From: Candidatus Berkelbacteria bacterium
GTDB lineage: Bacteria; Patescibacteriota; UBA1384; JACPKC01
NCBI GenBank assembly: GCA_016187225.1
Contig: JACPKC010000002.1
Location: forward strand, 3,387 to 67,386
DNA length: 64,000 nt
Direction of reading: 5' to 3'
Shown: positions 8,960-33,291 of the stretch, one piece after another
Layout: every line of letters begins with the position of its first letter
Position numbering within the stretch: position 1 is the stretch's first letter
Made by a program: the position numbers and the translations under genes
Notes under the pieces: model-generated
The model's input: only the letters and a program-made list of their open reading frames with translations
Databases searched by the model: none
Told to the model about the DNA's origin: nothing

Positions 8960-8971
8960 AACACCTCTTCA

Positions 8972-9422: not shown

Positions 9423-10124
9423 TTAGGGCGCTTCATCATAGGCGAGGGTAAGAGCGGCGCGTTCGCGAAAGCCAGCTTGGGCAAGACAGCGAGCGGCTTC
9501 GGCAAGAGTGGCGCCAGTAGTGCAAATATCATCGATCAGTAAAACAGGCCCTTGAATTTCAGGGCCTGTCCATTTAAAAACGCCGCTCACATTTTTTTGC
9601 CGCTCGCGGCGCGAAAGCCCAACTTGACTCCGCGTTTCTTGGATTCGCTGAAGTTGAGTCCTGACAGGTATGTGAGTTAACTCGGAGAGGGCGCGAGCAA
9701 GTAGAAAAGCTTGATTATAACCACGGGATCGCAAACGCTGGGGGCTGATTGGGATTGGAATGAGCGCCGACCAAGACGTGTGTTTAAGAATAGTTTGCCA
9801 ACGACTATATGCATGAGCCGCAAACTCGTCGAAGGCGGCCGAGAGCCCCTGATATTTTAACTTGTGGAGAGCGCGTTTCAGGGGTTGTTTTTGGTAACTC
9901 CCGAAACAGCCAAGCGCCTTGAGGTTCAGAGATTGTTGGTGCGTTTTGCACAGCGCGTTCGGCGCGAACGTAGTTCGTCGACAAATCTGGCATTGAGTTG
10001 GCGAGAGCGAGAGCGCGCTTTCATGAATACAAGTTTTGCAAAACCAATTTCCTCGTCGCTGGCAACCTAGACAAAAGGTTGGGCAGAGACAATCTCCAAT
10101 TTCATTAAAAATAAGTTTAAGCAT
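9423..10124 (-). CDS. comFC: ComF-family protein (ComFC-like phosphoribosyltransferase with N-terminal Cys-rich zinc finger)
   Basis: CxxC...CxxC pairs at the N-terminus. PRTase motif VLLIDDICTTGATLAEAARCL. Confidence 0.75.
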   Translation of the reverse strand: MLKLIFNEIGDCLCPTFCLGCQRRGNWFCKTCIHESALSLSPTQCQICRRTTFAPNALCKTHQQSLNLKALGCFGSYQKQPLKRALHKLKYQGLSAAFDEFAAHAYSRWQTILKHTSWSALIPIPISPQRLRSRGYNQAFLLARALSELTHIPVRTQLQRIQETRSQVGLSRRERQKNVSGVFKWTGPEIQGPVLLIDDICTTGATLAEAARCLAQAGFRERAALTLAYDEAP

Positions 10125-16814: not shown

Positions 16815-17951
16815 ATGAAGATCGCCATTATTTTGGGCACGCGCCCAGAAATTATTAAACTCGCCCCAATTCTTCGTCGCATCCAGGCGTCCGAGAATGA
16901 GCTTATGCTCATCCATACTAATCAGCACTACTCGGCAAATATGGACGGGGTATTCTTTAAGGAATTAGCTTTGCCAGCGCCAGACTCTAATCTTGGGGTT
17001 GGTTCAGGTACGCATGGCGCTCAAACTGGTTTAATGCTTGCCAGGCTCGAGAAGGCGTTGAACATGAATCGACCGGACGCAGTTCTAGTTCAGGGAGATA
17101 CTAATACAGTTTTAGCAGGCGCCTTGGCGGCGGTGAAGCTTGGTATTCAAGTCGGTCACGTGGAAGCGGGGCTTCGAAGTTACGACCGAACGATGCCGGA
17201 AGAGATCAATCGCGTTCTGACCGACCATGCGGCCGATATTTTATTTGCGCCCACTCAAAATGCGGCCCAGCTTTTACATGCCGAAGGTATTCCTAGCGAA
17301 CGAATCGAGGTTACTGGTAATACGATCGTGGATGCAATAAACGATCATCGTGAGTTAGTCAATTCACGTTCGTATATTCTATCCACGCTAAAGCTAGAGC
17401 CTCGAGGTTATTTGCTTTTAACCCTGCATCGGCCAGCGAATGTTGACCGACGAGAAACGCTCGCTGAAATTATTATAGGAATCACGAACGTGGCACGAAT
17501 AACTCAACTGCCGGTAGTCTTTCCGGCGCATCCTCGAACAGTTAAACAGCTTGAGCAATTCAAGCTCACGCTTCCGGTTTCATTTCGTCAAATTAAGCCA
17601 ATCGGCTACCTAGATTTTCTAGGCTTAGAAGCAAATGCCGAGCTTATTCTCACGGACTCCGGCGGAATTCAAGAAGAAGCCTGTGTCCTGCGAGTGCCTT
17701 GCGTGACCATCCGAGAAAACACCGAACGTCCCGAAACTCTGGCAGTAGGCGCTAACGAATTGGCAGGTCTAACCTCAATCGGCATTCAAGCGGCGAGTGC
17801 CAAAATGCTTGCGCAAGCTCGAACTTGGCAAAATCCTTTTGGCGATGGTCGCGCGAGCGATCGAATTCTTCACAAATTATCCACAAGGTTTTCCACACTG
17901 CCTGCAACGGGCTTTGCTAGTGTTAAGGGTCATGGCGACCACAACTTCTAA
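16815..17951 (+). CDS. UDP-N-acetylglucosamine 2-epimerase (WecB/NeuC family)
   Basis: MKIAIILGTRPEIIKLAPI...HTNQHYS...LVQGDTNTVLAGALAAVKLGIQVGHVEAGLRSYDRTMPEEINR is canonical Epimerase_2. Confidence 0.85.
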   Translation: MKIAIILGTRPEIIKLAPILRRIQASENELMLIHTNQHYSANMDGVFFKELALPAPDSNLGVGSGTHGAQTGLMLARLEKALNMNRPDAVLVQGDTNTVLAGALAAVKLGIQVGHVEAGLRSYDRTMPEEINRVLTDHAADILFAPTQNAAQLLHAEGIPSERIEVTGNTIVDAINDHRELVNSRSYILSTLKLEPRGYLLLTLHRPANVDRRETLAEIIIGITNVARITQLPVVFPAHPRTVKQLEQFKLTLPVSFRQIKPIGYLDFLGLEANAELILTDSGGIQEEACVLRVPCVTIRENTERPETLAVGANELAGLTSIGIQAASAKMLAQARTWQNPFGDGRASDRILHKLSTRFSTLPATGFASVKGHGDHNF

Positions 17952-19578: not shown

Positions 19579-19594
19579 TTAGCAAGGAGGGTGT

Positions 19595-20758
19595 GTGGCA
19601 GTCGAACCAGTTAAATTTTGGCAAGCGCTTGAAAAAGAGAATCTCGGTCCAATTTTTCAAGTTCCATGCTCGATATTCAAAAATTTTCTGAACTTTTGTT
19701 ATGACACCGACAAGGAAGTCTACAATCCGGTTCATGAAGGCATTGCCCTAGTTCAAGCTTCGGGCGCTTATCTTGCTACCGGTAAATTGCCGATCGTGAT
19801 GCTTCAAAATTCCGGTTTTGGCAATCTTTTGAATCCCCTCACCTCATTGAATCAGGTTTATGACATCCCTGCTTTGCTGATGATGAGTTGGCGCGGAGCG
19901 GATGGTCGAGGCACTGATGCGCCGGAACATGATGAAATGGGAACCATGTTCTTAAAAATTCTTAAGGCGGCGAATGTTGCCTCTGAAATACTTGATGAGA
20001 GACATTTCGGCGAGCAAATTTATAAGTCGAGCCAACTCGCTCAAAGCCAACGTCGCCCGACCGCGTTAATTCTTAAAAAAGATTTTTTTGCGCCCTACCA
20101 AGCACGCCAATCACACATCTCTCCAGCGCAAGAATTCACACGGCATCACGTGATCTCGGTGATAAAAAATTGGTTTGGCGAGCGAGCGATTTACCTTTCT
20201 TCGACTGGCTTCCCAAGCCGAGATTCGTTTAACGTTCGCGATACGCCCGATTTTTACATCATGGGTTCAATGGGCTATACGGGCGCACTCGGCTTACATA
20301 TTGCAAAATCAAACGACCGTCCAGTTGTGCTCTTCGAAGGCGATGGCAGTGTTTTAATGCATATCGGCGCACTCGCTTCAATTGCGGCGCTTAAGCCAAA
20401 AAATCTGATCCATTTTGTTTTAGATAACGAAGCTTATGATTCAACCGGTTTCCAGCCATCGCTAAGCAAAGGCATCGATTTGTGTAAAATTGCGGAAGGT
20501 TTCGGCTACACGTATACATTGAACGTTCGTGAAGAAAATGATTTAAGGACTCTTCTCGCAACCGTGGAATCAATTAAAGGACCGATCTTGATCCGCGTCA
20601 AGGTGGGGCAGGTTCATACAAAGACTGGCCAACGCGTTTCGGATAAGTATTCTCCAGTTCAGATTACAGATCGTTTTATGGAGAATTTGCGATCTGGCTA
20701 TCTTGGCATTCAAGAGTCAGGCAATCAAGCGCGTGACGTGGTTGAGGTTAATGTCTAA
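19595..20758 (+). CDS. ppd: phosphonopyruvate decarboxylase (thiamin-diphosphate enzyme; sulfopyruvate decarboxylase is the closest alternative)
   Basis: 387 aa. ThDP motif GDGSVLMHIGALASIAALKPKNLIHFVLDNEAY (GDG-x26-NN). Positioned directly after pepM. Confidence 0.7.
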   Translation: MAVEPVKFWQALEKENLGPIFQVPCSIFKNFLNFCYDTDKEVYNPVHEGIALVQASGAYLATGKLPIVMLQNSGFGNLLNPLTSLNQVYDIPALLMMSWRGADGRGTDAPEHDEMGTMFLKILKAANVASEILDERHFGEQIYKSSQLAQSQRRPTALILKKDFFAPYQARQSHISPAQEFTRHHVISVIKNWFGERAIYLSSTGFPSRDSFNVRDTPDFYIMGSMGYTGALGLHIAKSNDRPVVLFEGDGSVLMHIGALASIAALKPKNLIHFVLDNEAYDSTGFQPSLSKGIDLCKIAEGFGYTYTLNVREENDLRTLLATVESIKGPILIRVKVGQVHTKTGQRVSDKYSPVQITDRFMENLRSGYLGIQESGNQARDVVEVNV

Positions 20759-21852
20759 TGCCCTGGTCGTACCATCTGCCTACACAGATCACGTTCGGTG
20801 AAGGCGTATTTCGCGATATTGATCGGTGGTGGTTAGCTAAACTGGGGCGGCGTGTCGGCTTGATCACGAGTCCATCTCAACAAGCGCGGGCGGTTGAACT
20901 TAAGGTTTGTGCGCGTTGGGATAAGATTACTTCCAACCCATCGGTTGCGACGCTTCAATCTTTGATTAAATGGGTTAAGTCAGAATCCCTCACCGGCCTA
21001 GTTGCTCTTGGCGGCGGCAGTGTGATCGACAGCGCCAAGGTTGCTTCAGTCCTGGCTTGCCAAGACATCTCACTTGTTGAAGCGCTCACCCGAAAAACTC
21101 AATTAGTCGCTCGACACTTGCCACTTATTGCTTGCCCGACCACTGCCGGCACAGGCGCAGAGGTTACGAAATGGGCAACGGTTTGGGGCGACGATCTTCG
21201 CAAGTATTCATTTGAGCATGAACTTGCTTATCCACTTCAGGCGGTCATCGACCCAGAGCTGACTTATTCATTGCCCCGTCAAATTACGGCCTCAACCGGC
21301 TTGGATGCATTTGCGCAAGCGATCGAAGCCTATTGGTCGCGTAATACTCAACCGCTCTCGCAAACCTTGGCGCTTCGTGCGATCGAGCTGATTTACGCCA
21401 CTTTGCCAAAAGCAGTCGATCAGCCAAAAGATGGCACAGCGCGTCACGACATGGCGCTTGGCTCGCTCTTGGCCGGACTCGCCTTTACCGGCACGCGCAC
21501 AACGGCCTGCCACGCCATTTCTTATCCAATGACCGCTCATTTCGGTGTGCCGCATGGCTTTGCCGTTGCTCTCACTCTTCCAAACATGCTCCGTTTCAAC
21601 GCCGAATCCTTCGTCAATTTTTCTACGTTCGTGAAGGCACTAGATGCAGATTCGATCGAAGCGGCCGCGAAACGCATTGAGCAGTTGATGCAAGTAGTAG
21701 GCGCGCCAACTACTTTAGCCGCCGCCAAGGTGCCTAAAACAGGCTTGCAAACTATTCTTGATGAGGGCTTTCATCCCGACCGCGTTATTCACAATCCTCG
21801 CGAACTTGACAGACAGTCGTTATCCGAGATGCTAACTAAAATTGCAAACTAG
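20758..21852 (+). CDS. group III iron-containing alcohol dehydrogenase (candidate phosphonoacetaldehyde reductase giving 2-hydroxyethylphosphonate)
   Basis: GGGSVIDSAKVAS and the Fe-ADH His cluster HAISYPMTAHFGVPHG. Start overlaps the ppd stop. Confidence 0.65.
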   Translation: MPWSYHLPTQITFGEGVFRDIDRWWLAKLGRRVGLITSPSQQARAVELKVCARWDKITSNPSVATLQSLIKWVKSESLTGLVALGGGSVIDSAKVASVLACQDISLVEALTRKTQLVARHLPLIACPTTAGTGAEVTKWATVWGDDLRKYSFEHELAYPLQAVIDPELTYSLPRQITASTGLDAFAQAIEAYWSRNTQPLSQTLALRAIELIYATLPKAVDQPKDGTARHDMALGSLLAGLAFTGTRTTACHAISYPMTAHFGVPHGFAVALTLPNMLRFNAESFVNFSTFVKALDADSIEAAAKRIEQLMQVVGAPTTLAAAKVPKTGLQTILDEGFHPDRVIHNPRELDRQSLSEMLTKIAN

Positions 21853-21860
21853 GAGGTTGG

Positions 21861-22598
21861 ATGCAGGCTTTAATCGTTGCGGCGGGCCGTTCGTCTAGAC
21901 TCTATCCGTTGACTCTCAAGACTCCGAAAACCCTGCTGTCGGTTGGCGAAGCGAGTTTAATTGAACGGTCGGTTCAAGCGTTGACTGCGGTTGGCGTTGA
22001 TCGGTTAGTGGTGATAACGGGCTTTGAAGCCGAGCAGATTGAATCAGCCTTGGGCGATCGGGCGAGCTACGTTCGAAACGAAAACTTTGCCACAACCAAT
22101 AATTTGGCAAGCTTACTGATTGGATCGCAAGCGCTTGATCTGTCAGAACCCTGGCTCTACCTTCATGCCGATTTAATTTATCATCCGCGCTTACTTGAAA
22201 ATACATTAAAAGCGCCGGGTGAAGTGGTTTTCTTAGTTGACCAACAGTCAATCGGCGAAGAAGAAATGAAAGTTCGGATCAAGGATGGGCGAATTATTGA
22301 AGCCAACAAGGCGATTCCGCTTAAGGAAGCCGCTGGTGAATGGACGGGAATTATCAAGTTTAATCCAGAGGGTGCGGCATGGTATCTGCCAGCGGTCGAG
22401 AAAGCAGTCGCGACTGATCCAACCAAATATGACTGCGTGGTCGTTCGTGATCTTGCCGCCGCCGGATATACAATTAGCGTTGCCTCGACTGAAGGCTTAC
22501 CGTGGCGCGAGGTTGATTTTCCAGAAGATCTTGCCGCCGCCCGGGAGATCGCCAAGGAGATTCCATGGCCAGTTCCATCCCTTCAGTTCGCGAATTGA
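21861..22598 (+). CDS. MobA/LicC-like nucleotidyltransferase (second cytidylyltransferase candidate)
   Basis: MQALIVAAGRSSRLYPLTLKTPKTLL...VDRLVVITG. Confidence 0.6.
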   Translation: MQALIVAAGRSSRLYPLTLKTPKTLLSVGEASLIERSVQALTAVGVDRLVVITGFEAEQIESALGDRASYVRNENFATTNNLASLLIGSQALDLSEPWLYLHADLIYHPRLLENTLKAPGEVVFLVDQQSIGEEEMKVRIKDGRIIEANKAIPLKEAAGEWTGIIKFNPEGAAWYLPAVEKAVATDPTKYDCVVVRDLAAAGYTISVASTEGLPWREVDFPEDLAAAREIAKEIPWPVPSLQFAN

Positions 22599-23329
22599 TT
22601 CCAATTATTCAAAAACGAAACTACGAGACCGCGACTACTTTTCAACTTGTTCATTTTCGTATTTCTCCTTACCTAACTCGCATCCTTTTGATGTTGAACA
22701 TCTCTGCTAATGCGACGACTCTAATCGCGCTCTTAATTGGTCTTATGTCGGTGTTTGCGCTTGTGCGACTGGTCAATAGCCCGCATCTTGTTTTAATTAG
22801 CGCACTGCTTTTTCAACTTCATTACCTGTTTGATTGCTCCGATGGTGAAATTGCTCGATTTCGCAAAACCCAAAGCCCGGCTGGCAAGTACGCCGACCTA
22901 TTTTTGCACCTTTTTGTTTACCCGATTTTTTTCCTTTCGATGGGTTGGGGGGCAACGAATGCGACTGGGAATCCATATTTTTTGCTTCTAGGCGGGATCA
23001 GCGCGGTTGGAGCGCTCTGGTACGACCACCTCTGGTTCGATTCTGGGCCGGATCCGGCATCCTTGACTCCAGTCAAAATGCCAAGCGTGACAATCGCAAA
23101 AAGAAAGTCAGCCCTAACTTTATTCATTGAACGGTCGTCGATTGTATGGAGCTTTCCCCTAATTGCTAATGTGTTTGGTCTTGTTGGAGTTTTGGTAAGT
23201 GCGTTAGGTAGCCTTGAACCGCTCTTTTGGTTTCTTTGGTTCTACGGCATTTCGTATCCGCTCTTCAGTGTTTTTACTGCTTGGCGCGTTCATCGCAATC
23301 TCGTAAAAACTTATGCTAAGCGCTCATAG
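22565..23329 (+). CDS. membrane CDP-alcohol phosphotransferase family protein
   Basis: DCSDGEIARFRKTQSPAGKYADLFLH matches DG-x2-AR-x8-G-x3-D-x3-(D/H). Five or six TM segments. Confidence 0.55.
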   Translation: MASSIPSVRELIPIIQKRNYETATTFQLVHFRISPYLTRILLMLNISANATTLIALLIGLMSVFALVRLVNSPHLVLISALLFQLHYLFDCSDGEIARFRKTQSPAGKYADLFLHLFVYPIFFLSMGWGATNATGNPYFLLLGGISAVGALWYDHLWFDSGPDPASLTPVKMPSVTIAKRKSALTLFIERSSIVWSFPLIANVFGLVGVLVSALGSLEPLFWFLWFYGISYPLFSVFTAWRVHRNLVKTYAKRS

Positions 23330-23389: not shown

Positions 23390-25078
23390 ATGGCTCGCGA
23401 GCGGAAACAGAAAAAACCCATTCTTGTAATTCTTGAGGACCCGACTTGTCTCGATCGCATCCACAATGCAATTCATCCTCATGAACAAGACCAGATACTC
23501 TATTTGCCTCTGAATGATTCAAGTTATCGAGCGCTTCAGTCGGCCAATTTGCCAAGTGTCGATCTTACCTCGCTTCAATGGAAGTCGTTTATTGGCATGG
23601 ATGATGAGGCTAGAAAACTTGCTCGTATTTCTATAAACAAAAATAAGAAGGTTTTGCACGGTCAAGAGATTACCCAAGTGCTTGAGTGGCCGCTAAGTTA
23701 TCTCTTTGCGTATCTATTAAAAAGAATCTGGATAATCGATTGGGCAATTCGAAGTTACAAGCCAGGCCAGATTATTTTTTGTATTCCAAAAAACAAGTTC
23801 CAACTTTCAGATGATCTATCATTTTCAGAATCAAGTTTAATCGGAAGTCGTTTAGCGTTGCTTTTGGCGCGCCGGAGTTCTCTGCCGTACAAAATGATCC
23901 GGGTGCGACAAAAAATGGCCTTTGATTTCCTCCGACCTCTCCGTTTAATATACCGTTGGTGGCGCTCGCAACGCTTCCCAGAAATCCCGTTGAAGCGGTT
24001 TGATGTCTTGGTCGCTCCAGCCGTAAAAGAGGCATCCTTTTCAGCGTTCAAGGGCAAAAATATCAACAGACTGACAAGTTATGGCTTACCTCTCCCTCTT
24101 TTTTCGCATGAACAGTTTCAATTTCCGCCGCTTCGTTACAGAGGCATATCGCTTAATTCGATTTTGAATTCCACAGCTAAGCAGGTTGGTCGAACGTTGC
24201 GGAGTTATCGCGCGTTTTTCGAGCGTGTTTCGGCCGCTCTCGCTTTTGCTCATGCCGAATTTGTAATTGCGAGCGAAGACACCAGCGCTTTTGGAAAATC
24301 TCTTGTTCTTGCCGCTAAATCCCAAGGGATTCGTTCAGTGGTTAGCCAGCATGGGGTCACAGGTCACCCGATTGGTTTTATTCCACTCACGGCCGATAAG
24401 TTTATGGCGTGGGGGCAAATTTCGCGAGATTGGCTAATAAAACACGGAGTGCCAGCTAAACGAGTGAGTGTTACAGGGCATCCAGCGTTTCAGGCTCATC
24501 AGGTTGATAGAACTCGTCGAGCTATACATCGAACGAACGTGAATAAAATGTTGAAGTTAGCGAGCAGGGCAAAATTAGTTGTGCTCACCACGCAAGTGAT
24601 TGAGGAACGATACTGTTTCCCTAATTATCATGTAAATTGGTGGGAAAATACGCCGTTTATTCAGGACGTAATCAACGCTGTGCTGGATATTGATTTAGCG
24701 GTTTTAGTGATCAAACCTCATCCCTCGGATGAAGGAATGGAAAAAATTATTGAAAGCTTAATCACTCGCGAACGAGTCAAGATTGTGCGGACGATACCGA
24801 CGCCAGAATTACTCGAAGCCGCTGATGTGGTGGTTACAGCTTGGTCAACGACTGGTCTTGAAGCTCTCGCCGTTGGGACGCCGGTCGTGTGGCATAACCC
24901 AGCGCGTCGGCCTGACTATCTCGGCTATCGTCCGTACATGAAGCATATTGAGGCGAAGAATCCACTCGAACTCACTGCGCTTATCCGCCAGGCAATCAAA
25001 TACCCGCTTCATTACCTCAAATCAGCTAAGACTGTAGAATATCTTAAGGATTACTTCAGCGTTCCACATCTCCATTAA
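23390..25078 (+). CDS. GT-B-fold transferase, TagF/CDP-glycerol glycerophosphotransferase-like candidate
   Basis: The C-terminal half has VLVIKPHPSDE...VVTAWSTTGLEALAVGTPVV, reminiscent of Glyphos_transf/capsule phosphotransferases. The N-terminal half is unassigned. Confidence 0.35.
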   Translation: MARERKQKKPILVILEDPTCLDRIHNAIHPHEQDQILYLPLNDSSYRALQSANLPSVDLTSLQWKSFIGMDDEARKLARISINKNKKVLHGQEITQVLEWPLSYLFAYLLKRIWIIDWAIRSYKPGQIIFCIPKNKFQLSDDLSFSESSLIGSRLALLLARRSSLPYKMIRVRQKMAFDFLRPLRLIYRWWRSQRFPEIPLKRFDVLVAPAVKEASFSAFKGKNINRLTSYGLPLPLFSHEQFQFPPLRYRGISLNSILNSTAKQVGRTLRSYRAFFERVSAALAFAHAEFVIASEDTSAFGKSLVLAAKSQGIRSVVSQHGVTGHPIGFIPLTADKFMAWGQISRDWLIKHGVPAKRVSVTGHPAFQAHQVDRTRRAIHRTNVNKMLKLASRAKLVVLTTQVIEERYCFPNYHVNWWENTPFIQDVINAVLDIDLAVLVIKPHPSDEGMEKIIESLITRERVKIVRTIPTPELLEAADVVVTAWSTTGLEALAVGTPVVWHNPARRPDYLGYRPYMKHIEAKNPLELTALIRQAIKYPLHYLKSAKTVEYLKDYFSVPHLH

Positions 25079-25375
25079 ACTGACAAATATTCGTTGCCAT
25101 ACCCGAGGCACTCTTCATCCAGCAACTCGAAGGACCTCAACCCTGGATGGGCCTGGGTTCGATTGCCTGGGTCGGGCCAGAGATTGAACCTTCAGGCGAT
25201 GCCGAAGGCGAGGTCGGTCGGAGACGGTGGGTCTCGATCGGAGACTTGGAGGGTGAGCTCAAGGAGCATCCAGAGCATTTTATGGGGTTTCATTACCCCG
25301 TACTGCTTTGGGCGGTGAACCTATTGAGAAAACCCGTCGCCACATCGGCGACTAACCAATAGAATCATCCAAAGT

Positions 25376-25404
25376 GAGGCGTTTTTCACGACGCCTCTTT
25401 TCTT
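25376..25404 (+). terminator. rho-independent terminator
   Basis: GAGGCGTTTTTCACGACGCCTC hairpin followed by TTTTCTT. Confidence 0.5.
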
Positions 25405-25698
25405 ATTAGAGAGAACTCGGACGTGAGTTCGGAGGTCAAATCTGCCTACTCGTAGCAAATACTCTCATGCGAATCATTAGTCTCTGCCACAGTGTGTACC
25501 AGCACCAGTCCCACATCGTCTGAAGAACGAAGTGCCGCCACAAGTTCCTCAAGGCGTACGTCAGGCGAATCTAGACAAGAGTTTTGCCGGTTATCCATAT
25601 TCCGTCAGAATGTTGAAGTGAAAACATATCCCCAGTCTACATTGGAATACACTTGATACCATTGTGCTAGATTTAAACAAAAGAGGGGAAATATTTTT

Positions 25699-26763
25699 AT
25701 GATGACTCGCGCAAGGCTTTTAAGTTTAGTAGGCGGGCTGGGTATATTGGGCCTCATGGGCGTGGGCATCGCTTTAAATAGATCAGAGGCTTCCTCAATC
25801 ACAGAGAATTTTTTTGTTCAGCCCCAAGAAGGTGTCGAAGCGCTTACTGTGACTGCGACGTATGCTGATTACCTGTTAATCGAGGGTACAGAACTTACCT
25901 TCCAGTTTGATAGGGAGACGACGATCGTTAATCCCTCGGGGCAGAACATTGGCTCTGTGAAGTATACGACCGTGACTCACCGCTATCAGAAGCCAGGGAA
26001 TTATTCCGTCAAGCTTATTGCGAAAATTCCCCTCGGAGACGGAAAGATTCTCACGAAAATAGTCCGAAAACGTGTCAAAGTAAGTAAGATCAAGCCCGGC
26101 CAATACTTTTCCATTGAACCCCCATCCGGTCTGGCCCCGCTCGGCATTAAGGCAGTGTACGCAGACTACTTCATGATTGAAGACACGAAGCTCGTCTTTG
26201 ATTTTGGAGATGGCACGGTCAGTGAGGACAGCGGAAACTACAGCAACAACACAGGCTCGGTTAAATACACTACCGCTTTTCATCGCTACAACGAGCCAGG
26301 CAAGTACACGGTTGGTCTCACGGTGAAAACACCTATCGGCGGCGATGAATTTCGTGAAAAAACCGTGAAAAAAGTGGTAAGGGTACAGCAGGGCGACTTA
26401 GTGTTACCTGTGCCGACTATTCGTAAACTCTATATGACTGGTCAGGGAACATTGCCGCGAACAGAAATAACTATTGAGCCTCGTATTCGATTGTCTGGGC
26501 GCGAAGCGCGTGGAGTATACATTGAAGGGACATCGATCACCGAACAAACTAATTTCGACGTCTGTTTGACGAATGAAGCATTCTCTCTACGAGCGGAATG
26601 CGAACAACTCGGTGTTTTTGGCACATTTAACAATAACGGTGGGTTCGACTGGTTCCTGTGGTTTCCAGACACTCTTTTCACACAGAAAGGCAACTATGTC
26701 ATCGAGGGGAGAGCACAGGGTTCAGTGCAAGCGTCAACACTTCTTGAAATTGTACGAGAATAG
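25699..26763 (+). CDS. secreted protein with two PKD-like domains
   Basis: Signal peptide, then two units ending VKYTTVTHRYQKPGNYSVKLIAK and FDFGDGTVSEDSG..VKYTTAFHRYNEPGKYTVGLTVK (PKD consensus FxDGS..H.Y..G.Y.V.L.V). Two hairpins lie downstream. Confidence 0.6.
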   Translation: MMTRARLLSLVGGLGILGLMGVGIALNRSEASSITENFFVQPQEGVEALTVTATYADYLLIEGTELTFQFDRETTIVNPSGQNIGSVKYTTVTHRYQKPGNYSVKLIAKIPLGDGKILTKIVRKRVKVSKIKPGQYFSIEPPSGLAPLGIKAVYADYFMIEDTKLVFDFGDGTVSEDSGNYSNNTGSVKYTTAFHRYNEPGKYTVGLTVKTPIGGDEFREKTVKKVVRVQQGDLVLPVPTIRKLYMTGQGTLPRTEITIEPRIRLSGREARGVYIEGTSITEQTNFDVCLTNEAFSLRAECEQLGVFGTFNNNGGFDWFLWFPDTLFTQKGNYVIEGRAQGSVQASTLLEIVRE

Positions 26764-26940
26764 TACGAACTTTCTACTTACATAACGCAACAAAAGAGCA
26801 TGCGTTCTCTTTTGTTGATGAATAGACCTGCAATTTTGTTTTAAAGAGCGCTCGCCAGGGCGCTCTTTACTTGTCTAATGCCGTGACGATACTTGGCAAG
26901 TTAAATACTCCTTGATAGCCTAACCGTGAGTTAGGAGGCG

Positions 26941-27090
26941 ATGGTGACTTTGGCACAGAAAATTGTTGCTGTTATCTCGGCACGGATCGAGTCAAAGCGA
27001 CTCGTGAAAAAAATATTCAAGAAATTGCTGGCAAGCCGCTTGTAACTTGGGCATTTGAAACAAGGCCGCGTCGCAATGTACTTACACGAT
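26941..27090 (+). pseudogene. N-terminal remnant of an acylneuraminate-cytidylyltransferase paralog (frameshift in an A7 run, then truncated)
   Basis: AGGAGG followed by ATG MVTLAQKIVAVISARIESKRLVKK, then a +1 shift gives KNIQEIAGKPLVTWAFE. About 80 percent nucleotide identity to the start of the intact gene at 27707. Confidence 0.5.
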
Positions 27091-27706
27091 TACTTTAGTA
27101 CTGGCGCACGCTTCGGTTGAATCACGCCCGGTTTAGGCGTAAACTCCAGACGTTTCGTTGGGAACCACCGGCAAGTCGGTGAATTTAATAGATTGGAGGA
27201 AAATGCGATATGAACGTTATCGCATGTTCCAAAGACCCTGGAGGGTTCAATAATCTCCTCCCCGTGTTGACCCGCACTCTTCCCGGAGACCGGTTTTCTC
27301 CAGTTCCAGTTGGAGAACGGCAATCTGGCGGAGCATCCGCTCGTGGCGAGCGGATGTGTTATGAAAGCAACGAATCTCGCCGAGTTGATCAATCAAGTGG
27401 TCATGGCGCTTGATGGGGATCTCGGTTCGAGAATTCTTGCTTCCCAGGAGGGCTACTACCGACTTGATGGCATGAACGCGGAGCGGTTTTGCCATCTGCT
27501 CCGGGATTTGGGGCACTGCAGCTTACAGCGTAGCGACCCCTTTCTCGTGAGGTCAGGTCTGTTCGATTGCCAAACTTACAGTTCGGTAGGTTTATAACCT
27601 ACCACATCGCGGGCCTTCGGGCCCGCTTCTACGTTTAGCCCACCTTGCATCAGTCATGACATGTGCTAGCATCAGGAAAATATCCAAGCAACAAAGGAGG
27701 GATTGC

Positions 27707-28291
27707 GTGTCATCTCCAAAGGTCAAACGTCCAAAAATCGTTGCTGTTATTCCGGCGCGGATTGGTTCGAAACGACTTCCTAAGAAGAATATCCAAGTGA
27801 TTGGTGGTCTTCCGTTGGTTGCGTGGGCCATCAAAACCGCCCAGGCAACCAAGCTTATCGACGACGTCTACGTTTCAACAGAGAGTGATGAGGTGGCCAC
27901 AATCGCTCGCCAATACGGCGCCAAGGTACTTGATCGGCCCGAGGAGCTGGCCGGTGATACGATCCGTATGCAGGACGTTGCACGCCAGGTTATGACCGAG
28001 CTCGCGGATATTGATGTCCTTGTCTTAGTTGGCGCGAATACGCCTGGCTTGCCACCTGAAACGCTCGACGCCGCAATCCAAAAGCTCCTCGACCACAGCC
28101 GCTGGGAAATTCGAAGTGTTGACAAAGACGGCCTTGAGCATTTCATGTTTTGGATTATGACTCGGCAAGCCTGTTTTTGGGATGGTCTCTCCGTCTATTT
28201 TGGTGTTCAAGAAACAGGTGTCGAGGAGATTCATACACCTGAAGACCTGGAACGTGTCCGCGCGATCCTTGAACAGAAAATTATTGCATGA
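27707..28291 (+). CDS. neuA: acylneuraminate (nonulosonic acid) cytidylyltransferase, short form
   Basis: GTG start 6 nt after AAAGGAGGG. KIVAVIPARIGSKRLPKKNIQVIGGLPLVAWAIK is the CTP_transf_3 signature. Confidence 0.7.
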   Translation: MSSPKVKRPKIVAVIPARIGSKRLPKKNIQVIGGLPLVAWAIKTAQATKLIDDVYVSTESDEVATIARQYGAKVLDRPEELAGDTIRMQDVARQVMTELADIDVLVLVGANTPGLPPETLDAAIQKLLDHSRWEIRSVDKDGLEHFMFWIMTRQACFWDGLSVYFGVQETGVEEIHTPEDLERVRAILEQKIIA

Positions 28292-28947
28292 GACTAAGTG
28301 TCATTGTGACCAATTATAATCTTGGCAGACAGCTTGGCCGATGTTTGCGGAGCTGTTTGGCGCAAGCTTTCCCCCGAGATGAATATGAAGTCATTGTGGT
28401 CGATGATTGCTCGACCGACTTCTCGCACAATATTCTCGAGGCCTTTGGGAATGAGATTAAGGTTATCAAGCTTGGTAAGAATGTGGGTGTTGCGGCAGCT
28501 TCAAACATCGGGATTCAGCGCTCGCTTGGTATGTATGTGATTCGAGTTGACGCCGACGACTATATTAACCAAAACTTATTTCTGTTTATGAGCGAGATTC
28601 TGACATATAACAAAGATATTGGCTTTGTTTACTGTGATCTGATGAAAGTAGCTGAAAACGAACAGCAACTTGGCAAAGTCGACCGAAGTGTCTTGGAAAA
28701 TTTGTATCACCATGGCGCTGGAGTAATGTTTCGTAAATCTCATCTCGAAGAAGTTGGCCTTTACGATGAAAAATTTCGCAATGCCGAAGATTACGACCTC
28801 TTAAAGCGCCTCATGAAGAGCTACACAGGTTTTCACCTACCCTTGCCGTACTATCGGTACGTAAGGCACGCCAACAATATGACCAACGATCAAGTCGGTC
28901 GGCTTGAATGGAACAAATTAGTGGAGGAGAAACATGCGACGCATTAA
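28288..28947 (+). CDS. glycosyltransferase family 2
   Basis: MRLSVIVTNYNLGRQLGRCLRSCLAQAFPRDEYEVIVVDDCSTD...DADD. Confidence 0.8.
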   Translation: MRLSVIVTNYNLGRQLGRCLRSCLAQAFPRDEYEVIVVDDCSTDFSHNILEAFGNEIKVIKLGKNVGVAAASNIGIQRSLGMYVIRVDADDYINQNLFLFMSEILTYNKDIGFVYCDLMKVAENEQQLGKVDRSVLENLYHHGAGVMFRKSHLEEVGLYDEKFRNAEDYDLLKRLMKSYTGFHLPLPYYRYVRHANNMTNDQVGRLEWNKLVEEKHATH

Positions 28948-30052
28948 GGTTGGGAAGCACTATATTTCAGACGCCGATTCGGTGTTTATTTTGCCCGAGG
29001 CGGGCGTGAATCATAATGGGTCACTCAAGCGAGCGAAGGATCTCATTCAAAAGGCGGCCGAGGCTGGCGCCCAGGGCATTAAGTTCCAAACTTATAAGGC
29101 GGAGACGCTTGTTACCAAGAGTGCTCCCCGCTTCTGGGACTGGGAAGGTGAACAAAAGAAGGAGGGGACGCAGTTTGATTCCTACAGCATTCTCGACAAA
29201 CTGCCGTGGCACGCCTACAAGGATCTCTCGTCGTACGCAAACGAGCTTGGCATCGAGTTTATTTCGACGCCGTTCGATGAGAAAGCGGTCGATATGCTCG
29301 ACGCGCTTGGCTCCCCGGCGTTCAAGATCGCTTCGTCTGATCTCACCTACTTACCGTTTTTGCGCTACGTCGCCAAAAAAGGCAAACCGATTTTTCTCTC
29401 AACTGGCGCGGCCACGCTCGGCGAGGTTGAGGAAGCGATCCGAACGATTGAAGCGGCTGGCAATCGCCAGATCGTGGTGATGCACTGTACACTTTGCTAT
29501 CCGACCGAACCGAAGGATGCGAACTTGAGGATTATTCAAACACTTCGTCGCACGTTTGGCTACCCAGTTGGCCTCTCGGACCACACTATGGGTACGGCAA
29601 TTCCGCCCGCCGCCGTTGCCCTTGGAGCCAGGTTGATCGAGAAACACTACACAGTTGATAAAACCCTCGGTCTCTCCGCCGATCACTGGCTCTCGATCGA
29701 CCCGATCGAACTCAAGCAGATTGTCGAGCATGTCAAACAAGTTCAAATCGCTCTTGGCACCGATGAAAAGCGAGTTTTCCCTGCCGAAGAGCATACTTAC
29801 CTATACGATAAGCGGAGCTTGGTGAGCACGCAGGCGATCAAAAAAGGTGAGGAAATTACGACTTCGATGCTGACTGGCAAGCGCCCGGGCACTGGCATCC
29901 CAACCAAGTTTTTTGATCTCATCGTTGGTAGCGCGGCGCAACTGGATATTCCCGAAGACACCACGTTGACTTGGGATATGGTAACCCAGCGCACTCCACT
30001 TGAGTTTGAAACGCTTCGTTCGCCAGCGGCTCGCATTCCTGAAATCGTTTAA
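28934..30052 (+). CDS. neuB: N-acetylneuraminate synthase family (NeuB/PseI/LegI-type nonulosonic acid synthase) with C-terminal SAF domain
   Basis: FILPEAGVNHNGSLKRAKDLIQKAAEAGAQGIKFQTYKAETL...KIASSDLTYLPFLRYVAKKGKPIFLSTGAATLGEVEEAI...GLSDHTMG. Confidence 0.85.
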   Translation: MRRIKVGKHYISDADSVFILPEAGVNHNGSLKRAKDLIQKAAEAGAQGIKFQTYKAETLVTKSAPRFWDWEGEQKKEGTQFDSYSILDKLPWHAYKDLSSYANELGIEFISTPFDEKAVDMLDALGSPAFKIASSDLTYLPFLRYVAKKGKPIFLSTGAATLGEVEEAIRTIEAAGNRQIVVMHCTLCYPTEPKDANLRIIQTLRRTFGYPVGLSDHTMGTAIPPAAVALGARLIEKHYTVDKTLGLSADHWLSIDPIELKQIVEHVKQVQIALGTDEKRVFPAEEHTYLYDKRSLVSTQAIKKGEEITTSMLTGKRPGTGIPTKFFDLIVGSAAQLDIPEDTTLTWDMVTQRTPLEFETLRSPAARIPEIV

Positions 30053-30068: not shown

Positions 30069-31061
30069 ATGGCTCGAACGCAACGCGTCCGGTGTAATCT
30101 GTGTGGCGCCGCTGTTGCTCGCTTGTGGTATCAAGCGGGTGAGTTTACATATGTAACTTGCCAAGTATGTAATTTGCACTACCTCAATCCTCAACCAACG
30201 CTCGAGATACTTGTTAATGAATACTACACGGACGACGCCTACTTTTCGTGGTATTACGATGGCGGCTACACTGCTCAAGAAGAAGCTATGCTTGCAAGTT
30301 ATCGGCAGACTGTGCGCGAGATTGTTTATGAGGCTGGAATCCAAAAGGGTCAACTCCTAGATATTGGCTGTGGCAGTGGCTATCTCATGGTCGTTGCCCG
30401 TGAGCTGGGGTTTGAGGTGGAGGGCATCGAGCCCGGCAAATCGGTGGCCGAGCATGGTCACAAGAAGTTTGGTCTCAAAATCCACATTGCTCCGCTTGAA
30501 GAAGTGAAATTAGCGCCCGAGAGCTACGATTTGGTGGTGATCGAAAGCACGCTTGAACACATGCTCGACCCTTTCGATACCTTGAAGCGAATTGCCCGCA
30601 TACTTCGTCCTGGTGGCGTGGTGTTTATAAAAGTGCCGAACGCAAATGTTACGCTTACTAGCCGAGCAGTTCGAGCTTCAGAGATTGAGGAAAATACGCC
30701 GTTCCACACTTACTACTTCACGCCCCAAACGCTTTCAATGTTGACTCGCAAAGTTGGTCTGTGGCCAATCTCGCTTAACACCGCTCTTCATTTTTCAGTC
30801 CCGTTCCGCCTAAGACAATGGTGGGAAGAGCAACGTGAACGTCGAATGAAGCGCGGTTATGTTGTTTCCCATTTGGAACGAAAATTAAATCCAAAGAGAT
30901 TTGCGTCTTCTCCAGCAACCCTGCTCGATCGTTTTGTCGGCGCCATGATCGATATTGGAGCAGTGCGACTTGGGACTCCGCTCTGGCGGGCAATTGATAG
31001 AATACCCCTAGCGCAAAAGGGTCATACAATTAGCTTATGGGCCCGCAAGGAAGTTTTATGA
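30069..31061 (+). CDS. class I SAM-dependent methyltransferase with N-terminal Cys4 zinc ribbon
   Basis: CNLCGAAV...CQVCNLHY, then LDIGCGSGYL and LRPGGVVFIKVPN. Confidence 0.75.
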   Translation: MARTQRVRCNLCGAAVARLWYQAGEFTYVTCQVCNLHYLNPQPTLEILVNEYYTDDAYFSWYYDGGYTAQEEAMLASYRQTVREIVYEAGIQKGQLLDIGCGSGYLMVVARELGFEVEGIEPGKSVAEHGHKKFGLKIHIAPLEEVKLAPESYDLVVIESTLEHMLDPFDTLKRIARILRPGGVVFIKVPNANVTLTSRAVRASEIEENTPFHTYYFTPQTLSMLTRKVGLWPISLNTALHFSVPFRLRQWWEEQRERRMKRGYVVSHLERKLNPKRFASSPATLLDRFVGAMIDIGAVRLGTPLWRAIDRIPLAQKGHTISLWARKEVL

Positions 31062-31774
31062 GCGCCTTTGATCAGGCCATTCGTTACGTTAAATACCTTA
31101 CTGGTTCTCTCTCGGGTCAACGCTTGTTTGGCCAGGAATATATTGATTATCGAATAAATCACGACTTAAAGCGCGCTGACCAGCAGAAGGTCTGGGAAGA
31201 ATGGGGCAAGGCTAATTATTACCAGCAAAGGGCGGCCGACCCGCCGAGCGATCAGACGATCTTCAATGTGATTAAACGCGCTCGAGCCAAGCGTGTGCTG
31301 GAGGCCGGCGTTGGTTATGGCCGAAATTTGAAACATATTCATGCGACCATTAGCCCGGATATTCAACTCGCTGGCGTTGATTTTGCCGAAAGTATGCTCA
31401 AGCATGCCCGTCAATTTCTAGGTGATATTCCGACCGAATTGGTGCGAGGTGACATTACTGACCGACTCCCCTTCTCCGATCAAGTTTTTGACGTGGTTTT
31501 TACTTCGGGCACACTTCAGCACATTGGTCCAGATTCAATCGATCAGGTTTATCAGGAGTTATGCCGCCTAACTAAAAATTATTTGGTCCTAGTTGAAGCC
31601 GATCAGCCGGGTTATGGAAATGGAAAGCTGATTGCCGAACACTGGTTTAAGGATCATATCTATAGTTACCACCACGATGAGAATTTGAGAGCGTTAGGCT
31701 GGGTGATTGAATCGAATGCAAGGCCAAAAGGGAATCCAAATGCCCGGGTTGTAGTTGCGAAACGGTTCTTATGA
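31058..31774 (+). CDS. class I SAM-dependent methyltransferase
   Basis: VLEAGVGYGRNL ... FDVVFTSGTLQHIGPD. ATGA overlap with the upstream stop. Confidence 0.75.
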   Translation: MSAFDQAIRYVKYLTGSLSGQRLFGQEYIDYRINHDLKRADQQKVWEEWGKANYYQQRAADPPSDQTIFNVIKRARAKRVLEAGVGYGRNLKHIHATISPDIQLAGVDFAESMLKHARQFLGDIPTELVRGDITDRLPFSDQVFDVVFTSGTLQHIGPDSIDQVYQELCRLTKNYLVLVEADQPGYGNGKLIAEHWFKDHIYSYHHDENLRALGWVIESNARPKGNPNARVVVAKRFL

Positions 31775-33291
31775 TTGTGGTCCTGAACCCGACTGGATCG
31801 AACTCCCGGATTGAGTTTGGATCCTCTGATCCTCGAATGTACCGCACGTTGCCCGGGAACTTTTTGGCGCTCCATGAGCTCCTGATCGCCCGAACAATTC
31901 CGCATACTGTTCTTCCTTCCCGAATTCTTACCGATGTATCGCCCGACAAATTTCCAGGCGCTTGGCTCGTTGTGCCGATTGGAAAGTACTCGTTTCATGA
32001 GAGGCGGGCGCTCCACGGCCTCTTGAATCGTCTTTCAGGTGTAATTATGGTTGATCCTCGTCTGCAAAAAGAATTTCCTCCGGGGCCGCGCATCCTTCAT
32101 CTCAAAGAAGATCTTGGGCAGTCACTTTTTCGTCGCTATGCAGTCAAGACACAGAAACCAAAACGATTTTCTCGCAAAACAGTGCATTTTGGCTACACGT
32201 TCGATCCTGATGAGCATGGTCATGCCGCACCTGATCAGGAACCGGAGCAATTTCGGTTACTGGCGGAATTTTTTGCCTCGACCGGCTATCCATTAGTTGT
32301 GGCCGGTGTCTCGCCCGCTGTAAAATCTTGGTCAATTGGCCACGACACCGAGGATCAGAAATGCTTGCGTTCGGGTAAAAAGATTGTCGAGTTCAACCAG
32401 TCTTATGGCGTCCGGTCTACTTTTTATCTTCGCCAGTTCATGGGCTTGGGTGATTTTACCGATCACCATTTTTATAAAATTCAAAAACCGTACACGCCAC
32501 AAGAAGCGTTTCGTGCCCTTAGTCGTCAGGGCACGGAGTTTGGTTATCACGGTGAAAGCGCCACTTGGATTGCTCTTCGTGCTGGCGGATTGCCGGCCGT
32601 TGAGAGTCACGGTATCGCCTTGTCCTATCTCCGGCGTGAGTTGTCTGAAGAGCAGATTCAAGTTGGTTCAACACACATGGGTAACCACGGCGAGGTTTAT
32701 CCGCAAGACTTTCGCGCGTTGGCACAAAACCGAATTACTCTCTGGCGGAACTCATTCCGTTTCAATGGTCTGACACCGATGCGACCTTATTTACTCTACG
32801 ATCGTGAGGGGAATACTCTATCTGGAATCTGGGGGCAGATGGATGATGTGATCGACGATTTAGCCAATCTCACTCTGGAGAGGCCGAACCATCTTGGCCA
32901 CCCGCCGCAACTCAACCAAAAAAGGTTGGAACGAGCGATCGAGACTCTTAAATCAGCTCCCGACGGCCACCTCTTCTTTCATTCTCACCCGCATAATTTT
33001 GACGACGTTGCAGGCACGCCCAAGAATTATGCGGCAGTTTACCAAGCGCTGAAGCAGGCCGAGTTTAGTAATATTACCAGTAACGAACTTGTTGGGTATT
33101 GGCAAAAACGGAGCCAGGTTGTGTTGCAACCTGTGGCGATGGGGTCTGGGGCGCGAGTAAGAGTGCGAAACAGTTTTTCTGGGCTTGTCTTGGCGTGCTA
33201 CGCTCAAGCGGCGCTCGAGGACGAGACCGGTACGGCGCTTCGCACTCGCATCCTCTACCGTACTCATCCTACGATCGTTCAAGTAATATGA
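31771..33291 (+). CDS. hypothetical protein (weak resemblance to NodB/CE4-type deacetylases)
   Basis: 506 aa, ATGA-coupled start. SIGHDTED and HSHPH resemble NodB motifs TFDDG and H(S/T)xxH, but not convincingly. Confidence 0.4.
   Translation: MIVVLNPTGSNSRIEFGSSDPRMYRTLPGNFLALHELLIARTIPHTVLPSRILTDVSPDKFPGAWLVVPIGKYSFHERRALHGLLNRLSGVIMVDPRLQKEFPPGPRILHLKEDLGQSLFRRYAVKTQKPKRFSRKTVHFGYTFDPDEHGHAAPDQEPEQFRLLAEFFASTGYPLVVAGVSPAVKSWSIGHDTEDQKCLRSGKKIVEFNQSYGVRSTFYLRQFMGLGDFTDHHFYKIQKPYTPQEAFRALSRQGTEFGYHGESATWIALRAGGLPAVESHGIALSYLRRELSEEQIQVGSTHMGNHGEVYPQDFRALAQNRITLWRNSFRFNGLTPMRPYLLYDREGNTLSGIWGQMDDVIDDLANLTLERPNHLGHPPQLNQKRLERAIETLKSAPDGHLFFHSHPHNFDDVAGTPKNYAAVYQALKQAEFSNITSNELVGYWQKRSQVVLQPVAMGSGARVRVRNSFSGLVLACYAQAALEDETGTALRTRILYRTHPTIVQVI

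Follow-up and report, generated by a model that had tools for sequence, protein, structure and literature searches.

A predicted compact nonulosonic acid gene module with two putative upstream pseudogenes in a cell-surface sugar locus of Candidatus Berkelbacteria

Gene content of the locus

The DNA analysed here, referred to as the window, was a stretch of 64,000 nucleotides (nt) from contig JACPKC010000002.1 of a Candidatus Berkelbacteria genome (GenBank assembly GCA_016187225.1). Coordinates are positions in this 64-kb window, L-numbers denote other contigs or loci, and P-numbers denote library proteins. The analysis concerned three genes predicted to form and activate a nonulosonic (sialic-acid-like) sugar and the gap of 943 nt in front of them (26764–27706). 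An earlier note, made by a model from the sequence alone, had placed a nonulosonic acid branch here and had described a decayed fragment of a second cytidylyltransferase gene in the gap. Pfam domains were searched for in window open reading frames (ORFs) of at least 120 amino acids (aa), and a number of the products were also compared with NCBIfam models. A short CTP_transf_3 cytidylyltransferase, a small family 2 glycosyltransferase (GT2) and a NeuB-family synthase with a SAF domain were found to be encoded consecutively on the forward strand (27707–30052), with overlaps of 4 nt and 14 nt. Both the Pfam scores and the coordinates agreed with the earlier statement that only the GT2 parts the synthase from the cytidylyltransferase. 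The positions of these and the neighbouring features are collected in Table 1.

Table 1. Features of the window discussed in the text, in order of position (RBS, ribosome-binding site; HMM, hidden Markov model; GT-B, glycosyltransferase of the GT-B fold; NTP, nucleoside triphosphate; PEP, phosphoenolpyruvate)
Feature	Position	Strand	Basis
Non-hydrolysing UDP-GlcNAc 2-epimerase (WecB)	16815..17951	+	wecB 393.3 bits (cut-off 210.15)
PEP mutase fused to NTP-transferase domain	within 17932-23329	+	PEP_mutase 286.6 bits (cut-off 319.6)
Phosphonopyruvate decarboxylase	within 17932-23329	+	308.5 bits (cut-off 312.5)
Phosphonate-type Fe-alcohol dehydrogenase	within 17932-23329	+	265 bits
Second NTP transferase; CDP-alcohol phosphatidyltransferase	within 17932-23329	+	
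GT-B protein, 562 aa, KPHPSD 'HP' motif	23390..25078	+	Pfam Capsule_synth 41.5 bits
PKD-domain protein, 354 aa	25699..26763	+	Pfam PKD 43.5 bits
Two stem-loops 3' of the PKD gene	26788..26869	+	-34.4 kcal/mol, z = -4.1, 0/200 shuffles as stable
Putative pseudogene 1, 5' relic of a CTP_transf_3 cytidylyltransferase	26933..27098	+	RBS, ATG, alignment to live gene
Putative pseudogene 2, P0191-family GT-B (Glyphos_transf-like)	27195..27597	+	phmmer, family HMM, tblastn
Two stem-loops at the end of pseudogene 2, the second with a UUCG loop	27585..27626	+	-30.6 kcal/mol, z = -3.2, 0/200 shuffles as stable
Short 'arm-less' CTP_transf_3 cytidylyltransferase, 194 aa	27707..28291	+	PF02348 94.4 bits
GT2, 219 aa	28288..28947	+	Pfam Glycos_transf_2 89 bits
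NeuB-family synthase with SAF domain, 372 aa	28934..30052	+	PF03102 278.6 bits (cut-off 22.1), PF08666 39.8 bits (cut-off 21)
Two S-adenosylmethionine-dependent methyltransferases	30069-31061, 31058-31774	+	Pfam methyltransferase domains

The synthase, the GT2 and the cytidylyltransferase

The synthase was placed by using the NCBIfam HMM cut-offs and a ranking of its relatives in the PDB. Its score on the DAHP_synth_Bsub model was 16.7 bits against a cut-off of 267.75, and its best solved relatives were SpsE of Bacillus subtilis (PDB 1VLI, 209 bits), followed by PseI (171 bits) and the NeuB of Neisseria meningitidis (140 bits). Alignment to 1XUU revealed that the NeuB residues E25, K53, Q55, H215, H236 and R314 are present here as E22, K50, Q52, H217, H238 and R317. 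Among these, H215 and H236 are reported for the 1XUZ structure to be a metal-binding pair and R314 to be contributed by the SAF domain. Membership of the NeuB family rather than a KDO8P/DAHP-like group, as proposed earlier, is thus supported by sequence comparison. Public annotation already names the synthase, and several close homologues were called legionaminate synthase by the Joint Genome Institute (JGI). Relatives with 54–64% identity occurred in Parcubacteria, Paceibacterota and Kaiserbacteria. Public proteins with 100% identity to the synthase and to the cytidylyltransferase bear the name Candidatus Berkelbacteria bacterium.

The cytidylyltransferase, a presumed CMP-nonulosonate synthetase, belonged to a short subfamily of about 24 proteins (178–202 aa) which are conserved from end to end. 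Its start was set at the GTG codon at 27707, which follows AAGGAGG. The public gene call has the same start, and the N-termini of the subfamily are consistent with it; an alternative ATG at 27656 was rejected on these two grounds. The N-terminal CTP-binding motif could be recognised as IPARIGSKRLPKKN, where R18 and K27, invariant in 24 sequences, are the equivalents of Arg12 and Lys21, whose roles are known from the CMP-N-acetylneuraminic acid (CMP-Neu5Ac) synthetase of N. meningitidis (PMC2901514). An AlphaFold2 model of the protein had a mean confidence (pLDDT) of 93.2. Foldseek comparison of the model returned CMP-Neu5Ac, CMP-ketodeoxynonulosonic acid (CMP-Kdn) and CMP-pseudaminic acid (CMP-Pse) synthetases as the top structural matches, followed by KdsB, with query-normalised TM scores of 0.86 to 6IFD and 9T4Z, 0.81–0.82 to 9FTC and 1EYR, and about 0.80 to KdsB. 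The modelled fold therefore supports assignment to the CMP-nonulosonate and CMP-Kdo synthetases. None of the specific equivalog models was satisfied, as the protein scored 95.1 bits on PseF (cut-off 205.7) and 43.6–85.7 bits on the KdsB models (cut-offs 155–281).

The whole length of the GT2 could be aligned with PDB 6P61 (170 bits), for which no published function was found in the literature searched. Based on its sequence, the GT2 is a conserved member of the three-gene module and a predicted glycosyltransferase.

The module in other genomes

The triad of short cytidylyltransferase, GT2 and NeuB was found in loci L003–L008 with 47–59% identity, and its genes mostly overlapped or abutted. Counterparts of the GT2 with 52–57% identity lay between the cytidylyltransferase and NeuB genes in L003, L007 and L008, and beside NeuB in L010. 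The latter locus (6252–9601) belongs to the Methanomassiliicoccales archaeon RumEn M1 (LJKK01000066.1) and carries the genes in the order GT2-NeuB-cytidylyltransferase with 49–53% identity to the window; a divergently transcribed gene for a 329-aa polysialyltransferase/GT52-like protein adjoins the triad. This archaeal copy suggests a transfer between domains of life. In two of the relatives, L007 (1055–3430) and L008 (1269–3380), genes for STT3/AglB-type oligosaccharyltransferases lie a few kb away from the module, which hints that the sugar may end up on proteins.

A decayed cytidylyltransferase gene upstream of the module

The putative pseudogene 1 opens with AGGAGG at 26933–26938 and an ATG at 26941, which begins a frame of 34 codons. 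Local alignment matched 26959–27061 with 27734–27837 of the live gene over 103 columns, with 71% DNA identity and a single gap of 1 nt. The alignment score was 40, compared with 11.6 ± 1.3 for shuffled sequences (maximum 17 in 500 shuffles) and a maximum of 18 among 126 other segments of the window. The gap was placed 5 nt before a run of seven A residues (A7, 27007–27013). Adding one A restored the frame MVTLAQKIVAVISARIESKRLVKKNIQEIAGKPLVTWAFET..., in which residues 7–41 (35 aa) were 74% identical to the live protein and which ended at a stop codon at 27096–27098; a frameshift at the A7 run followed by truncation, as described before, could thus be confirmed. The earlier estimate of about 45 codons at about 80% nucleotide identity needed adjustment. 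The RBS and the ATG were correctly described and about 41 codons are recognisable, with the homology ending at about 27062, while the identity of 80% is confined to the first 44 nt. Overall, the first 41–52 codons were kept and about 140 were lost.

Over the same 35 residues, 23 other members of the subfamily were 49–66% identical to the live protein and 43–57% identical to the relic. The relic and the live gene thus resemble each other more than either resembles any other known relative, and the proposal that the upstream piece is a decayed homologue of the cytidylyltransferase held. Two nearly invariant residues were already changed in the relic (Gly20 to Glu and Pro16 to Ser), and a protein search of 5.8 billion proteins did not return a close full-length relative of the repaired 52-aa fragment. 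Both the relic and the N-terminus of the resident protein scored higher on a canonical cytidylyltransferase HMM than on a short-type HMM, although the resident protein is of the short type. A further match in this region, between the C-terminus of the 562-aa protein and 27046–27099 (50% over 18 aa, E = 0.015 in a search of 943 nt), was treated as a chance match since it overlaps the homologous frame of the relic.

A comparable fragment was found in L007, where a 91-codon 5' relic of a canonical ARGGSRGIPRKN-type CTP_transf_3 gene (7712–7987) lies directly upstream of the short cytidylyltransferase, GT2 and NeuB genes. It appears to be frameshifted in an A-rich run at AAGAAAATATGG. Judged from its sequence, this is a second and independent case of a decayed 5' cytidylyltransferase beside the module.

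The intergenic gap and a second pseudogene

The gap had been described as a stretch of low coding density of 0.9 kb with two hairpins and a single paralog fragment. The present analysis revealed a different content, namely four strong hairpins (26788–26817, 26842–26869, 27585–27603 and 27609–27626) and a pair of putative pseudogenes, the second of which derives from an internally deleted GT-B gene. The pair of stem-loops behind the PKD gene was predicted to be terminator-like, and about 80 nt separate the second pair from the start of the live cytidylyltransferase. Pfam analysis of four ORFs in the gap gave no match, Rfam analysis of 26500–28000 gave only sub-threshold matches, and the counts in a scan for promoter and terminator consensus sequences were not above those in shuffled sequences.

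An early blastx search of the gap matched pseudogene 1 only, and the rerun with more loci added the GT-B relic. When the 95-aa ORF at 27310–27597 was compared by phmmer with the whole library of 1.8 billion proteins, it matched the C-terminus of the 360-aa protein P0191 (E = 1.1e-5) and the 108-aa protein P0193 (E = 4e-4). A metagenome scan using P0191 alone returned nothing, while a scan using a three-sequence alignment returned five loci encoding P0191 relatives. A family HMM was built from five full-length members (P0191 and four relatives). Translated 27277–27594 matched HMM positions 279–352 (E = 1.1e-14), and 27216–27272 matched positions 3–21, where VIACSKDPGGFNNLLPVLT stands against the family motif CKDPGG. 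The two pieces lie on the same strand, about 5 nt apart and in different frames, and HMM positions 22–278 are absent. Such a collinear match to both ends of the family indicates another pseudogene, from whose interior about 257 codons have been deleted. It would begin with GGAGG at 27195–27199 and an ATG at 27210; codons 1–21 (to 27272) run, after a change of frame, straight into the last 75–85 codons (27271/27277–27594), and the stop codon (27595–27597) lies inside the first hairpin of 27585–27626. The lost part of the parent family, whose members have about 360 aa, includes the HP-motif region. A 78-aa ORF from the ATG at 27361 within this relic was called as a gene in public data (P0189). 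No homology was detected for 27099–27194 and 27628–27693 by blastx against the proteins collected.

P0191 and its relatives showed weak matches to Glyphos_transf (TagB/TagF-type GT-B), and the HP motif of P0191 reads RLHPR. P0191 itself matched no NCBIfam model, and its relative in L093 had a faint match to BFO_1060_trans. In L096 (Paceibacterota), an intact family member of 357 aa (306 bits on the family HMM) directly follows the cytidylyltransferase, GT2 and NeuB genes. The family member in L094 is followed by a HAD hydrolase gene and then a CTP_transf_3 gene, and in L093 the family member is preceded, two genes earlier, by a NeuB gene. Since relatives of P0191 stand beside nonulosonate genes, and directly after the triad in L096, the two relics can be read as one decayed activation-plus-transfer pair.

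Sequence comparison demonstrated that the relic stretch is identical, base for base, in two independent assemblies (SRR12113424 and SRR12113420). These two assemblies span the relic region and had no mismatches to the window over 20.6 kb and 11.6 kb, and identity across assemblies from different sequencing runs indicates that the relics are not a one-off assembly error. Contig L002 of a third assembly (SRR12113420) starts at window position 26684, in the 3'-terminal part of the PKD gene and 80 nt before its stop codon. This is a possible sign of strain variation, or of a break in coverage, shortly ahead of the relics.

Neighbouring genes

The 562-aa GT-B protein scored below the NCBIfam cut-offs (49 bits on surf_polysacc; 41.4 bits on BFO_1060_trans, cut-off 200). 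Counterparts of 605–631 aa are encoded directly upstream of the short cytidylyltransferase gene, at a distance of 4 nt in L003–L006 and about 100 nt in L008, and scored 89–91 bits on the BFO_1060 model (cut-off 200). On the basis of these TagB/Capsule_synth/BFO_1060-like features, the protein is a candidate transferase for the CMP-activated sugar. It is only distantly related to the P0191 family. The PKD protein, encoded between this transferase gene and the module, does not belong to the pathway; no PKD counterpart was found at the corresponding position in L003–L008. Between the 562-aa gene and the PKD gene there is a non-coding gap of 620 nt (25079–25698) with a terminator-like hairpin at 25376–25397, where comparison with the proteins collected did not reveal any pseudogene remnant.

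Downstream of the synthase gene, the two methyltransferases probably modify the sugar, as suggested by their domains and position. There was also a weak match (51 bits) to TIGR03587, a model of a pseudaminic-acid-associated methylase, and a methyltransferase gene also follows NeuB in L008, L095 and L097. A 506-aa ORF (31771–33291) comes directly after the two methyltransferase genes. It had no Pfam match at E < 0.001, and the same was observed for three further large ORFs inside the glycan locus, at 15178–16722 (514 aa), 39955–41028 (357 aa) and 47094–49070 (658 aa). NCBIfam models likewise returned nothing for the 514-aa and 506-aa ORFs.

The epimerase gene at 16815 had been considered NeuC-like in role and not distinguishable from WecB. 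It could be distinguished here, since the wecB score was far above its cut-off while the NeuC model gave 74.5 bits against a cut-off of 235.9. The epimerase is thus of the WecB type and not a NeuC-like supplier, and its product is more likely an N-acetylmannosamine (ManNAc)-type residue than free ManNAc. By analogy with TagB and Tannerella systems, it may provide a ManNAc-type acceptor.

A phosphonate branch (17932–23329, forward strand) lies 4 kb upstream of the module. From its gene content, this branch looks like a route to nucleotide-activated 2-hydroxyethylphosphonate, which would be coupled to a glycan or lipid. No paper linking PEP mutase to bacteria of the candidate phyla radiation (CPR) was found in the literature searched, and phosphonate genes were absent from the other module-bearing loci L003–L008. 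In the left part of the window, five consecutive genes on the reverse strand (2254–6605) encode a C-terminal T4SS_pilin domain (PF18895); arrays of such paralogues are typical of CPR genomes. The 10-kb flank to the right of the window carries housekeeping genes.

Interpretation and alternative explanations

The probable explanation of these data, in our judgement, is a compact live nonulosonic-sugar module preceded by the relics of a second activation-plus-transfer gene pair. In the proposed pathway, the NeuB-family enzyme would condense phosphoenolpyruvate with a hexose derivative to yield a nine-carbon keto-acid, which the short cytidylyltransferase would activate with CTP. The TagB/sialyltransferase-like GT-B protein of 562 aa would then transfer the activated acid onto a surface glycan, the small GT2 would build the acceptor or prepare the precursor, and the methyltransferases would decorate the product. 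These chemical steps, above all the identity of the hexose, we infer from the family membership, the fold, the conserved catalytic residues and the gene order. The dead part of the locus (26933–27597) is, by sequence similarity, a putative remnant of a second pair made up of a cytidylyltransferase (cyt') and a GT-B enzyme of about 360 aa (GT-B'). Intact genes nearby cover both functions of the relics, the cytidylyltransferase at 27707 and the GT-B at 23390, so decay of a pair that had become redundant is the simplest interpretation. The PKD gene beside the relic pair, which is not redundant, would have survived. A segment PKD-cyt'-GT-B' may have been inserted between the transferase and the module, or the relics may be an older module that was left behind.

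Several observations weigh against this interpretation. The synthase scored below the cut-offs for both N-acetylneuraminate synthase (TIGR03569, 342.4 against 399.65 bits) and PseI (TIGR03586, 303.8 against 340.25 bits), and no Neu, legionaminic acid (Leg) or Pse precursor gene was found across about 74 kb, made up of the window plus 10 kb on its right side. While the idea of a nonulosonic acid branch is upheld by the NeuB family and the CMP-synthetase fold, its assignment to a sialic, pseudaminic or legionaminic type is not. The cytidylyltransferase also departs from the studied enzymes. Compared with eight canonical homologues of 220–250 aa, about 37 contiguous residues, comprising the dimerisation arm with its R-x-Q-[DE]-L motif, are gone in all members of the short subfamily. 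In the CMP-Neu5Ac synthetase of N. meningitidis, Arg165 and Gln166 of this arm are essential; Arg165 binds the sugar carboxylate and the R165A variant is inactive (PMC2901514). The second metal-binding Asp of the Asp209/Asp211 pair is replaced by His, so that D-I-D reads [D/E]-[I/V]-H throughout the subfamily and E-I-H here. At the position equivalent to Gln104 (residue about 109), whose mutation strongly lowers the activity of the N. meningitidis enzyme, the window protein has Gly (GANTP), nearly all of the subfamily reads QANSP, and one member (P0123) carries Lys. The earlier term 'intact' thus applies to the reading frame and to conservation within the short subfamily, and activity on a nonulosonate is a prediction from the fold and gene linkage. 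On the side of the relics, the N-terminal piece of pseudogene 2 matches over just 19 residues, with E = 0.0015 in a set of 53 candidate pieces, and the relic pair could be either imported or ancestral.

The fragments in the gap could have other origins. A local tandem duplication that copied only the 5' end of the live cytidylyltransferase gene, with the rest of the 0.9 kb as featureless spacer, would agree with the close mutual relationship of pseudogene 1 and the live gene, which point in the same direction with a spacing of 775 nt. Such a partial duplication does not account for pseudogene 2, which is unrelated and has an RBS, a start, a stop and hairpins of its own. No duplicated flanks were found, and 71% DNA identity over 103 nt means that any duplication would be old; we regard this origin as improbable. 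It is more improbable still that the broken frames are in use, as small proteins (34 aa from 26941 and 78 aa from 27361), through programmed frameshifting at the A7 run, or as a regulatory leader. In favour of such use, an RBS and start codon survive in both relics, the 78-aa ORF carries an annotation as a product, the A7 run is slippery, and the second ORF is followed by hairpins. However, frameshifting at A7 would add just 28 codons before the stop with no catalytic core after it, and the 78-aa ORF is the C-terminal tail of a family of about 360-aa enzymes with no domain of its own. The mutated family residues of pseudogene 1 and the lack of a close homologue of its repaired peptide also argue against use. 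An artefact, either a homopolymer sequencing error or a chimeric assembly, is hardly credible. The window comes from a metagenome-assembled genome and contig L002 breaks near the relics, but the two other assemblies span the whole region without mismatch, and neither the truncation of pseudogene 1 nor the large deletion in pseudogene 2 is possible as a single-base error.

A different kind of alternative is that the live module makes no nonulosonic acid but another keto-acid or a compound tied to the phosphonate genes. This was given a small chance, somewhat above those of the three explanations just described. The missed synthase cut-offs, the loss of the Arg165 equivalent with the altered metal- and sugar-binding positions, the precursor genes that were not found, and the cluster of PEP mutase, phosphonopyruvate decarboxylase and Fe-alcohol dehydrogenase genes upstream would all be in line with it. 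On the other hand, the catalytic and sugar-contact residues of NeuB are all conserved, NeuB orthologues with 60–64% identity lie in classical clusters for di-amino nonulosonates, and the other module loci are free of phosphonate genes. The archaeal copy adjoins a sialyltransferase-like gene, and the best structural matches of the cytidylyltransferase are synthetases of CMP-nonulosonates.

Possible identity of the sugar

Within the 74 kb, no NeuC gene was found and the only Epimerase_2 gene is that of WecB; there was no DegT or Aminotran gene among the scanned ORFs, and no equivalents of LegB, LegC, LegH, LegG, PseB, PseC or PseG. The best short-chain dehydrogenase/reductase (SDR) protein of this region reached 109 bits on the LegB model (cut-off 475), and its SDR proteins scored at most 36 bits on PseB (cut-off 408). 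Nonulosonate precursor genes were also absent from the other GT2-containing triad loci, with the exception of a DegT gene set in L007, which looks like a UDP-ManNAc3NAcA-type pathway.

The NeuB orthologues with 60–64% identity (Parcubacteria, Paceibacterota and Kaiserbacteria) cluster with genes for a Polysacc_synt_2 dehydratase, DegT, acyl-modifying enzymes and Epimerase_2, and such clusters point to a 5,7-diamino product of the Leg or Pse type. The bare window and the bare triad loci leave room for a simpler substrate, for example a Kdn-like sugar. A di-amino acid of the legionaminic or pseudaminic type was tentatively placed first among the candidates, at somewhat under even chances. A Kdn-like or other non-amino acid is a possible but doubtful product, a Neu5Ac-type acid is unlikely, and for any further kind of sugar the chance is slim.

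One speculative extension is that the triad represents a self-contained mobile pathway of CPR bacteria and Methanomassiliicoccales. By this route a common nucleotide sugar would be converted into an activated nine-carbon acid, with no need for the classical precursor enzymes of the Neu, Leg or Pse pathways. The GT2 would then possibly act as a nucleotide-sugar hydrolase or in a priming step, leading to a Kdn-like or 9-deoxy acid, and the cytidylyltransferase, having no Arg165 arm, would use a new mode of substrate binding. We consider this distinctly unlikely as a whole.

Significance

Sialic-acid-like sugars shape the recognition of cells by hosts, partners and phages, and CPR bacteria live attached to other cells, which gives weight to the chemistry of their surface. 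No paper joining 'nonulosonic' with 'Patescibacteria' could be found in the literature searched, and the nonulosonate papers found there do not mention the candidate phyla radiation; a large phylogenetic study of NeuB (PMC8208679) likewise makes no mention of CPR. The module is of a known kind in an unusually compact form, with an arm-less cytidylyltransferase and an embedded GT2. It thereby offers a minimal, portable gene set, present in an archaeon as well, whose cytidylyltransferase has dispensed with a part thought essential in the studied enzymes. The locus shows gene turnover in a cell-surface sugar region and is otherwise fairly ordinary; it clearly exemplifies the decay of redundant genes within a glycan locus, and L007 provides a second independent example. 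As the type of pathway is well known, the gain lies in a better annotation (two pseudogenes, a corrected start and WecB in place of NeuC) and in a defined question of enzymology rather than in a new principle.

Comparison with known systems

The window resembles the LegI/LegF system of Campylobacter jejuni and the SpsE/SpsF system of B. subtilis in combining a NeuB-family synthase with a SAF domain and a CTP_transf_3 cytidylyltransferase. It differs from both in that the cytidylyltransferase is about 40 residues shorter, without the dimerisation arm, and a small GT2 gene is wedged between the two genes. Unlike the legionaminic acid branch, it has no accompanying LegB, LegC, LegH and LegG equivalents in the 74 kb.

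In comparison with the Neu5Ac pathway NeuC-NeuB-NeuA (SiaA/SiaC/SiaB of N. meningitidis), the NeuB residues are kept and the cytidylyltransferase fold matches 1EYR and 6IFD, whereas the TIGR03569 score stays below the cut-off, WecB is the only epimerase of this kind, the Arg165/Gln166 arm is missing and Gly takes the place of Gln104. The CMP-Kdn synthetase of Prymnesium parvum (9T4Z) was the best sequence match of the cytidylyltransferase in the PDB (72 bits) and tied for the best structural match (TM score 0.86), although its margin over the CMP-Neu5Ac synthetases is small. A Kdn pathway needs no amino-sugar precursor genes and thus fits the bare module, but the window module contains no phosphatase gene. 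All three proteins of the module have relatives among solved structures, as the 'Glycosyltransferase' 6P61 (228 aa) matches the GT2, 6NCS matches the NeuB-family synthase and 6OEW (Leptospira borgpetersenii) matches the cytidylyltransferase; presumably these three entries come from one Leptospira structural-genomics set.

For the transfer step, the closest parallel is provided by Tannerella forsythia, in which the TagB-like GT-B proteins Tanf_01245, TFUB4_00887 and BFO_1060, which carry an HP motif, have been experimentally implicated as pseudaminic or legionaminic acid transferases (PMC5420450). Their genes are neighbours of CMP-nonulosonate genes and of one for a methyltransferase, and a ManNAc-derived sugar serves as the acceptor (PMC5420450). 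The scores obtained here (41–91 bits) lie below the cut-off of 200, the 560–630-aa proteins have an extra N-terminal half, and members of the P0191 family have about 360 aa. The likeness lies in the sub-threshold match of the 562-aa protein and its counterparts to the BFO_1060 model, and in the presence of a WecB gene in the same locus.

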